A program made the position numbers and the translations under genes. This document shows, one piece after another, positions 1-600 of a DNA stretch of 600 nt. Source of the stretch: Escherichia coli (GTDB lineage Bacteria > Pseudomonadota > Gammaproteobacteria > Enterobacterales > Enterobacteriaceae); assembly GCF_003334785.1 (NCBI RefSeq), contig NZ_QOWV01000081.1. One strand, 5' to 3'. The notes below the pieces were generated by a model. It had not been told where the DNA came from. It saw only the letters and a list, made by a program, of their open reading frames with translations, and did not search any database. The first letter of the stretch is position 1. Each line of letters opens with the position of its first letter.

Positions 1-600
1 CCCTCATCCTCGCTGCGGATAAGTTTGCCGGTCAGGTCGTGGTGATAACGCTGTGTGCGGCCGTCAAAGCCGGTTTCCTGTATCAGCCGGTCAAGTACAT
101 CGTAACGGAAGGTGGTGTGGCTGCCGTTTTCACTGGTCAGGCGGATGACCCGTCCGGCAGCATCGTATTCCATACTGCGCGTCAGCCCGCCCTGCGTGGT
201 ACGGACGGCCTTTCCCCACGCATCGTACTGTGTCCCGTTTCTGCTGCCGTCCGGGGCAATGACGGCGGTCAGGTCACCGGCGATGTTGTATTCATACCGC
301 GTTTCATGGCCCTGCGTGTCTTTCACGGCAATTAACTGTCCACGGCTGTCGTATGCGCGGTACTGACTCAGCCCTTCCTCGCGGTGCACCGCCGTCATCT
401 GCTCGAAGCGGTCATGGTCATAACGGGTTACATAACCGGAACAGTCGGTGAAGCTCAGCAACTGACCGTAACGGCTCCACGTCATGGTTTTCCGGCTGCC
501 GGTGGCATCTTCCGTTGCGCAGGGTAAGTCACTGTGTGGATTATCATAACGGTAGCGGGTGATATCGCCGTCAGGGGCAGTTTCCTGAATCAGACGGCCC
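1..600 (-). CDS. Rhs-family YD-repeat core protein (polymorphic toxin shell), internal fragment; partial at both the 5' and 3' ends
   Basis: Seen in sequence: the reverse-complement frame with codons 599..597 down to 5..3 is open across the whole window (199 codons, no stop). Its translation carries YD dipeptides at about 21-residue spacing within motifs such as RYRYD, YRAYDSRGQLIAV, YEYNIAGDLTAV, MEYDAAGRVIRL, FRYDVLDRLIQE and RYHHDLTGKLI, matching the Rhs/YD-repeat consensus (roughly xRYxYDxxGRL). Established knowledge: this pattern defines Rhs/YD-repeat proteins (Pfam RHS_repeat PF05593, TIGR01643). From memory the residue string looks like the E. coli rhsA/B/C/D-type core, but I cannot assign a paralog or species without an alignment, so the gene symbol is left blank. 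No start or stop codon lies in the window, so the true gene extends beyond both edges. Confidence 0.93.

Follow-up and report, generated by a model that had tools for sequence, protein, structure and literature searches.

Nine consecutive YD repeats with a 21-residue period in an internal piece of an Escherichia coli rhs gene

The stretch of Escherichia coli DNA analysed here (600 nucleotides; hereafter the window) carries one long open reading frame on its minus strand, which starts from base 599 and runs for 199 codons with zero stops (1..599, open at both ends); the remaining two minus-strand frames contain many stops. At the DNA level, the window is 99.8% identical to genes annotated in complete E. 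coli genomes as rhsA, rhsB, rhsC or 'RHS element core protein', and 599 of its 600 bases, together with 198 of the 199 encoded residues, are the same as in residues 493–691 of K-12 RhsB, a protein of 1411 residues. The matching MG1655 sequence is part of rhsB, the gene found downstream of the nik operon. The content of the window amounts to nine consecutive YD repeats and half of a tenth, and we conclude, with a probability of about 97%, that the window comes from the interior of an E. coli rhs gene, within the core common to RhsA, RhsB and RhsC, and encodes a YD-repeat β-hairpin segment. The features are listed below, with residues numbered along the 199-residue translation and each unit represented by its anchor, the Tyr–Asp pair or the two residues standing in its place.

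1..599, minus strand: internal fragment of an Rhs element core protein gene (open frame, DNA identity with rhsA/B/C, RHS_core match)
579..599, minus strand: half unit, second strand GRLIQET, with its YD just outside the window (YDELGRLIQET in K-12 RhsB); unit HMM match 481–499; model strand 2–7
543..548, minus strand: anchor of unit 1, Y18-D19; model strand 13–18 ends on Y18
474..479, minus strand: anchor of unit 2, W41-S42 (WSRYGQLL); model strand 36–41 ends on W41; supported by homologues
411..416, minus strand: anchor of unit 3, H62-D63 (RYDHDRFE); model strand 57–62 ends on H62; homologue consensus RYEYDRFGQ
402..404, minus strand: Glu66 codon GAG at the turn-glycine position of unit 3 (GGG in K-12); base 403 is the single difference (HDRF[G>E])
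348..353, minus strand: anchor of unit 4, Y83-D84 (YRAYDSRGQLIAV); the Pfam RHS_repeat match 83–119 begins here
285..290, minus strand: anchor of unit 5, Y104-N105 (RYEYNIAGDLTAV); codon check, strand end and spacing
222..227, minus strand: anchor of unit 6, Y125-D126 (GTQYDAWGKAV); Pfam RHS_repeat match 125–160
162..167, minus strand: anchor of unit 7, Y145-D146 (SMEYDAAGRVIRL); Pfam RHS_repeat match 145–182; 20 residues from unit 6
99..104, minus strand: anchor of unit 8, Y166-D167 (FRYDVLDRLIQET); strand end, homologue alignment and spacing
36..41, minus strand: anchor of unit 9, H187-D188 (RYHHDLTGKLIRS); model strand 182–187 ends on H187; 21-residue spacing

To place the anchors, we combined the published YDxxGRL[I/T] rule with an alignment of 35 homologous sequences, read column by column, and with the points at which strands end in a structure model; these homologues are short or partial proteins only (≤350 aa), fit for alignment but not for domain architecture. 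In the structure of Tse5, which exemplifies the rule, YDxxGRL[I/T] hairpins have a DxxGR turn and a Tyr facing the cavity, with H, R, W and F able to substitute for Tyr (PMC10684867). For E. coli, PMC7259588 quotes a longer form of the motif, xxGxxxRYxYDxxGRL[I/T]xxxx, which recurs about every 21 residues in RhsA (see also PMC4436062). Successive anchors in the window are separated by 23, 21, 21, 21, 21, 20, 21 and 21 residues (mean 21.1), corresponding to 69, 63, 63, 63, 63, 60, 63 and 63 nt. Position −7 from the anchor is Gly in every one of the nine units; Tyr is found in six, Asp in seven and Gly at +4 in six.

All eight codon pairs or groups listed in a first-pass annotation made from the DNA letters are present at their positions in a single minus-strand frame, and most of them proved to be true anchors; those given for units 3 and 9, however, had been misplaced (at 417..422 and 42..47), the true His-Asp anchors lying at 411..416 and 36..41. 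In unit 3, taking Y60-D61 (417..422) as the anchor would imply a two-residue insertion and is ruled out by the homologue columns and the strand ends: Y60 is the upstream Tyr of the RY-x element, followed by Asp, and the H62-D63 register restores the 21-residue spacing. Likewise in unit 9, the YH at 42..47 contains the upstream RY-x Tyr, and the column of H187 holds Tyr in 14 of 17 homologues. The same annotation had also read a 126-nt gap as a two-unit step lacking a YD pair, but this interval holds a unit of its own, anchored by Trp-Ser at 474..479. The homologue column of W41 contains W, R or F, with Gly at +4 in 26 of 26 sequences, and unit 2 aligns with LEWNRFGLL of Tse5. Y44-G45 was considered as the anchor of unit 2 and rejected in favour of W41-S42 on the basis of the Tse5 alignment, the strand end and the homologue columns.

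Two further units depart from the consensus. In unit 1, NPHSDLPCATED follows the YD in place of the xxGRL return motif (525..542, minus strand, residues 20–25), and the model shows an atypical nine-residue loop and a short strand (28–31). The single 23-residue spacing arises because unit 1 lacks xxGRL and has this long loop. In unit 8, the turn Gly is replaced by Asp, as it is in most homologues.

The assignment to the Rhs family is established for the window by both profile and sequence comparisons. Pfam RHS_repeat (PF05593) matches five times with E-values from 1.1e-10 to 1.1e-3, four of them at E ≤ 0.001, and TIGR01643 (YD_repeat_2x) reaches 84 bits, its cutoff being 15.8. The NCBIfam model NF041261 (RHS_core) aligns collinearly at profile positions 501–699 of 1261 (E = 2e-116) with 390 bits, below the 2,000-bit cutoff of this model, which is meant for the whole protein and is out of reach for 199 residues; full-length K-12 RhsB exceeds that cutoff with 2,643.8 bits. 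Among proteins of known structure, the best sequence match is Tse5 (8cp6; E = 2.4e-43, query residues 9–198 against Tse5 410–600), and further matches were obtained to the solved Rhs proteins 8qja, 7q97, 8h8a/b, 8qjb-d, Tse15 and Tre23, with teneurins matching weakly.

An AlphaFold model of the 199-residue fragment, built on the 35-sequence alignment, has a mean pLDDT of 93.8 with zero residues below 50, and predicts 19 antiparallel β-strands, two per 21-residue unit. Strands two apart in the sequence start 19–26 residues from each other, the interval being 21 in 11 of 17 cases. In the model, every anchor, W41, H62 and H187 among them, closes a strand, and about five residues of loop come next. 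In a Foldseek search against the PDB, the top matches were Rhs shells only (8cp6, TMq 0.86; 8qja, 0.85, rmsd 2.9 Å; 8h8b, 0.85), most scoring 0.78–0.86; these were followed by the Tc-toxin BC shells of Yersinia and Photorhabdus and then by teneurins, while generic flat β-sheets such as OspA scored a TMq of about 0.25. The mapping onto a solved shell or an AlphaFold model that had been proposed as a check of the earlier reading therefore returned a confidently predicted run of hairpins, with the best superposition on solved Rhs shells and the next best on Tc and teneurin shells. Each repeat is accordingly predicted to contribute one β-hairpin to an unbroken antiparallel sheet like that of the solved Rhs shells, and for the fragment this fold is established by confident prediction and close homology. 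The earlier identification of the pattern as the β-hairpin repeat of the Rhs shell is borne out by the model and the Foldseek ranking, by the matches to RHS_repeat, TIGR01643 and RHS_core, and by the 99.8% DNA identity. Neither of the two outcomes named beforehand as overturning it, a missing signal near 21 residues or a model lacking the shell fold, was obtained.

The repeat and its statistics were likewise established on the window itself. When the translation was autocorrelated with BLOSUM62 scores, a peak appeared at exactly 21 residues (z = 7.2), as the first-pass annotation had anticipated for this check, with harmonics at lag 42 (z = 6.8) and lag 62 (z = 6.3); by the same measure, every other lag up to 69 gave a z no higher than 2. 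With nine anchors 20–23 residues apart and this lag-21 signal, the fragment contains the tandem motif of about 21 residues that characterises YD repeats. Could the spacing of the YD codon pairs nevertheless be a chance or compositional pattern of a GC-rich coding region? The hexamer ATCGTA occurs at 99, 162 and 222, as had been reported, and nowhere else in the window, yet three identical TACGAT among six YD pairs are what codon usage predicts (P = 0.73), and Tandem Repeats Finder, run on the window with scores down to 30, returned zero arrays, while a direct-repeat scan found short families only, 70–88% identical. These observations would suit a chance pattern. Against it stand seven Y[DN] dipeptides where residue shuffles give 1.5 (P = 0.00015), the lag-21 peak with its harmonics, the curated repeat models matched above their cutoffs, and the predicted strands, which share the period; we therefore see virtually no chance that the spacing is accidental. 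The description of the repeat as visible directly in the DNA holds only weakly. Compared with codon shuffles, DNA autocorrelation shows modest signals at lags 63 (z = 3.1), 126 (z = 3.8) and 186 (z = 3.95), but at lag 63 these come from codon positions 1 (z = 2.7) and 2 (z = 3.5) and not from position 3 (z = −0.6), and they are missed by Tandem Repeats Finder. With that program blank and only short direct-repeat families present, the repeat is therefore undetectable as a DNA tandem array, and the 63-nt rhythm of the DNA is a faint shadow of the protein repeat. The same measurements bear on whether the array is instead a feature of the DNA, either a young tandem duplication or an array whose units recombination has homogenised (concerted evolution). 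Such an origin would fit with Rhs elements serving as substrates for recombination, with the segment's median copy number of 4 per genome, and with the 81% identity of the two end units over 31 nt (direct-repeat family D2). However, identity at third codon positions shows no excess at any of the three lags (z = −0.6, −0.1 and 0.3 for 63, 126 and 186), and the units share about 40% of their nucleotides and 25% of their amino acids. Between units, identity is 0.44 at codon positions 1 and 2 and 0.32 at position 3, where composition predicts 0.30, and the residues shared by two units use the same codon in 66 of 151 cases (0.44), equal to the codon-usage expectation of 0.44. Together with the blank Tandem Repeats Finder result, this makes a young or homogenised array exceedingly unlikely. 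These values bear out the earlier view of the repeats as old and preserved through the protein, and they support units that diverged long ago and selection acting on the protein pattern rather than on the nucleotides. The weight once placed on reuse of ATCGTA across units does not stand, since its recurrence is a chance outcome, and we rejected shared ATCGTA/TACGAT as a sign of common DNA ancestry on the same P-value.

Two other explanations concern the gene instead of the repeat. Antisense open reading frames do exist on the plus strand within the rhs coding region, at 39..335 (98 codons) and 112..366 (84 codons), and either could in principle be the real gene (98 or 84 aa), with the minus-strand pattern incidental. 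Neither spans the window, whereas the minus-strand frame stays open for all 199 codons, has a third-position GC content of 67%, as coding frames of GC-rich genes usually do, and has overwhelming support from homology and family models; moreover, annotated genomes carry only the rhs CDS at this location. We discount a plus-strand gene almost completely, and the plus-strand frames are probably by-products of the GC-rich codon pattern. No RNA families were found by an Rfam scan of both strands at E ≤ 1. A minus-strand gene could still belong to a different YD-repeat family, such as a Tc-toxin C/B subunit, a teneurin-like protein or WapA, and these do share the fold, with significant structural matches (4igl, TMq 0.72; the teneurin-like 9ifo, 0.84; teneurins, 0.35–0.57) and weak sequence matches too. 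The resemblance to Tc-toxin BC and teneurins is nevertheless one of fold, at a sequence identity of only 12–18% (teneurin-4, E = 1.4e-4), which places the fragment outside these families, defined as they are by a TcB β-propeller gate and TcA-binding region or by teneurin EGF, NHL and Tox-GHH domains as well as by sequence, whereas its DNA is 99.8% identical to E. coli rhsA/B/C and the equivalog-level RHS_core model aligns it collinearly at positions 501–699. We give hardly any credence to membership of another family, and retain the assignment to the E. coli Rhs core.

The one non-textbook feature of the window is base 403, at which K-12-like genomes differ from it. The change (G558E in RhsB numbering) places Glu at a position that is Gly in 28 of 29 aligned homologues, a turn glycine on which the torsional freedom of the hairpin is said to depend. 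Among 3,476 complete E. coli genomes with the segment, the base-403 variant occurs in one, strain E423, at the rhsA position; that copy (stretch 4839..5438) matches the window at 403 and differs from it at 350, where GAC is replaced by CAC, so that unit 4 reads YH there instead of YD. Because Glu replaces a conserved turn Gly, the rhs copy in the window could be slightly impaired, although the base-403 change is most likely a neutral polymorphism or an error. It is a long shot that Glu66 marks an rhs copy that is structurally compromised or in decay, or serves as a naturally tolerated probe of how robust the YD turn is, or alternatively that the strong similarity between the end units hints at an eight-unit super-repeat.

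The end units in question, DRLIQETGFDG and GRLIQETAPDG (60..90 and 567..597), lie 169 residues apart and have 81% nucleotide identity over 31 nt. Lag 169 reaches z = 6.0 in the window compared with 3.1 in full-length RhsB, where lags 150 and 191 appear beside it. A higher-order period of 169 residues was rejected on account of this weak signal in the full protein and of the neighbouring lags, and the lag-169 signal is probably the eighth harmonic of the 21-residue period instead of a super-repeat.

The segment is found in 3,897 of 5,426 complete E. coli genomes, with a median of 4 copies per genome and a maximum of 7; identity over the full 600 bases was found in none of the 5,426. As the segment is multi-copy, it is a likely source of assembly collapse and recombination, and not a unique marker. 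Plasmid-borne places make up 6 of 16,556, which is unusual for a chromosomal rhs core.

K-12 rhsB extends well beyond the segment, whose 199 of about 1,400 residues take in neither the autoprotease motif and the toxin tip nor any N-terminal secretion-targeting domain (PAAR-like or other). An HMM of the unit built from the window finds 23 matches in K-12 RhsB, and its strongest contiguous run spans residues 481–706, so the window represents the most regular block of the array. Further along the protein lie the TIGR03696 Rhs-associated core domain (residues 1170–1247) and the aspartyl autoprotease motif (DPxGx18DPxG / PxxxxDPxGL), seen as DPIG-x18-DPLG from 1221 and PISDIDPLGL from 1238. Base composition breaks sharply in K-12 rhsB (rhsB locus stretch 4526..8761), from 61.9% GC in the core to 35.6% over the final 450 nt, the part coding for the toxin tip. 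Downstream of K-12 rhsB are the small gene yhhH, a pseudogene fragment and an ISEc1-family (ISAs1-like) transposase. No vgrG was found near rhs in the stretches covered (nik operon–rhsB–yhhH and yibF–rhs–yibG).

From the model and from homologous proteins, a working scheme for the shell can be proposed. Each unit of about 21 residues, with the pattern xxGxxxRYxYDxxGRL[I/T]xxxx, is predicted to fold as one β-hairpin, whose first strand runs up to the Tyr, or to a bulky residue in its place (Trp, His), while D-x-x-G makes a tight turn and R-L-[I/T]-x-x forms the return strand. A second loop, containing the Gly seven residues before the Tyr that is invariant in the nine units, leads into the next unit, and successive hairpins join edge to edge into a single continuous antiparallel sheet. 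In the full-length protein, by homology, this sheet would wind into a spiral and close as the Rhs cocoon, some 1,000 residues in size, which, judging from homologues, would hold the variable C-terminal toxin after aspartyl autoproteolysis. The toxin would then be delivered to a neighbouring cell, by type VI secretion as in characterised homologues. We infer shell closure, toxin encapsulation and secretion from those relatives of the protein.

The YD motif, the 21-residue period in E. coli RhsA and the structural role of the repeat are all published, and the finding is already known (PMC10684867, PMC4436062, PMC7259588). Because motif, period and hairpin role are in the literature and the window is essentially identical to K-12 rhsA/B/C, its discovery value is low. 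It does offer a usable contrast between an ancient protein repeat, with signal at codon positions 1 and 2 only and codon sharing at expectation, and a recent DNA duplication. It also has calibration value, since codon spacing alone, with no tools, sufficed for the protein-level repeat to be recognised.

Compared with known systems, the window is nearest to E. coli K-12 RhsA, RhsB and RhsC (NF041261), which have the same repeat motif and period at the same place in the core; from K-12 RhsB it differs by the single non-synonymous base at 403 (Gly to Glu in the window). The closest solved structure, by sequence and by structure alike, is Tse5 of Pseudomonas aeruginosa (8cp6; E = 2.4e-43, TMq 0.86), an Rhs toxin of type VI secretion whose cocoon structure has been solved, which follows the same hairpin rule as the window (YDxxGRL, a DxxGR turn and a Tyr facing the cavity) but differs in showing about 37% identity, in coming from another genus and in bearing a pore-forming C-terminal toxin. 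Tse5 is reported to have 40 hairpins, whereas the 23 units of E. coli RhsB are an HMM estimate only. The same β-spiral repeat is found in P. protegens RhsA (7q97), Photorhabdus Tre23-Rhs (7pq5), the Advenella and Salmonella bongori Rhs cores (8qja-d), Aeromonas/Vibrio-type RhsP (8h8a/b) and Acinetobacter Tse15 (8uxt/8uy4). These bacterial Rhs shells other than Tse5 match the fragment with E-values of 1e-23 to 1e-34, TMq of 0.44–0.85 and 17–28% identity over its length, and differ in their N-terminal adaptor or clade domains and in their toxins. More distantly, the YD-repeat shell fold recurs in Tc-toxin BC (4igl, 4o9x, 6h6e; Foldseek probability 1.00, TMq up to 0.74, with 4igl at 0.72) and in metazoan teneurins (6fb3, 6vhh, 7ban; probability 1.00, TMq 0.35–0.57); at 12–18% identity the resemblance is one of fold only, and these proteins serve as insecticidal toxin complexes and eukaryotic cell-adhesion receptors, respectively.
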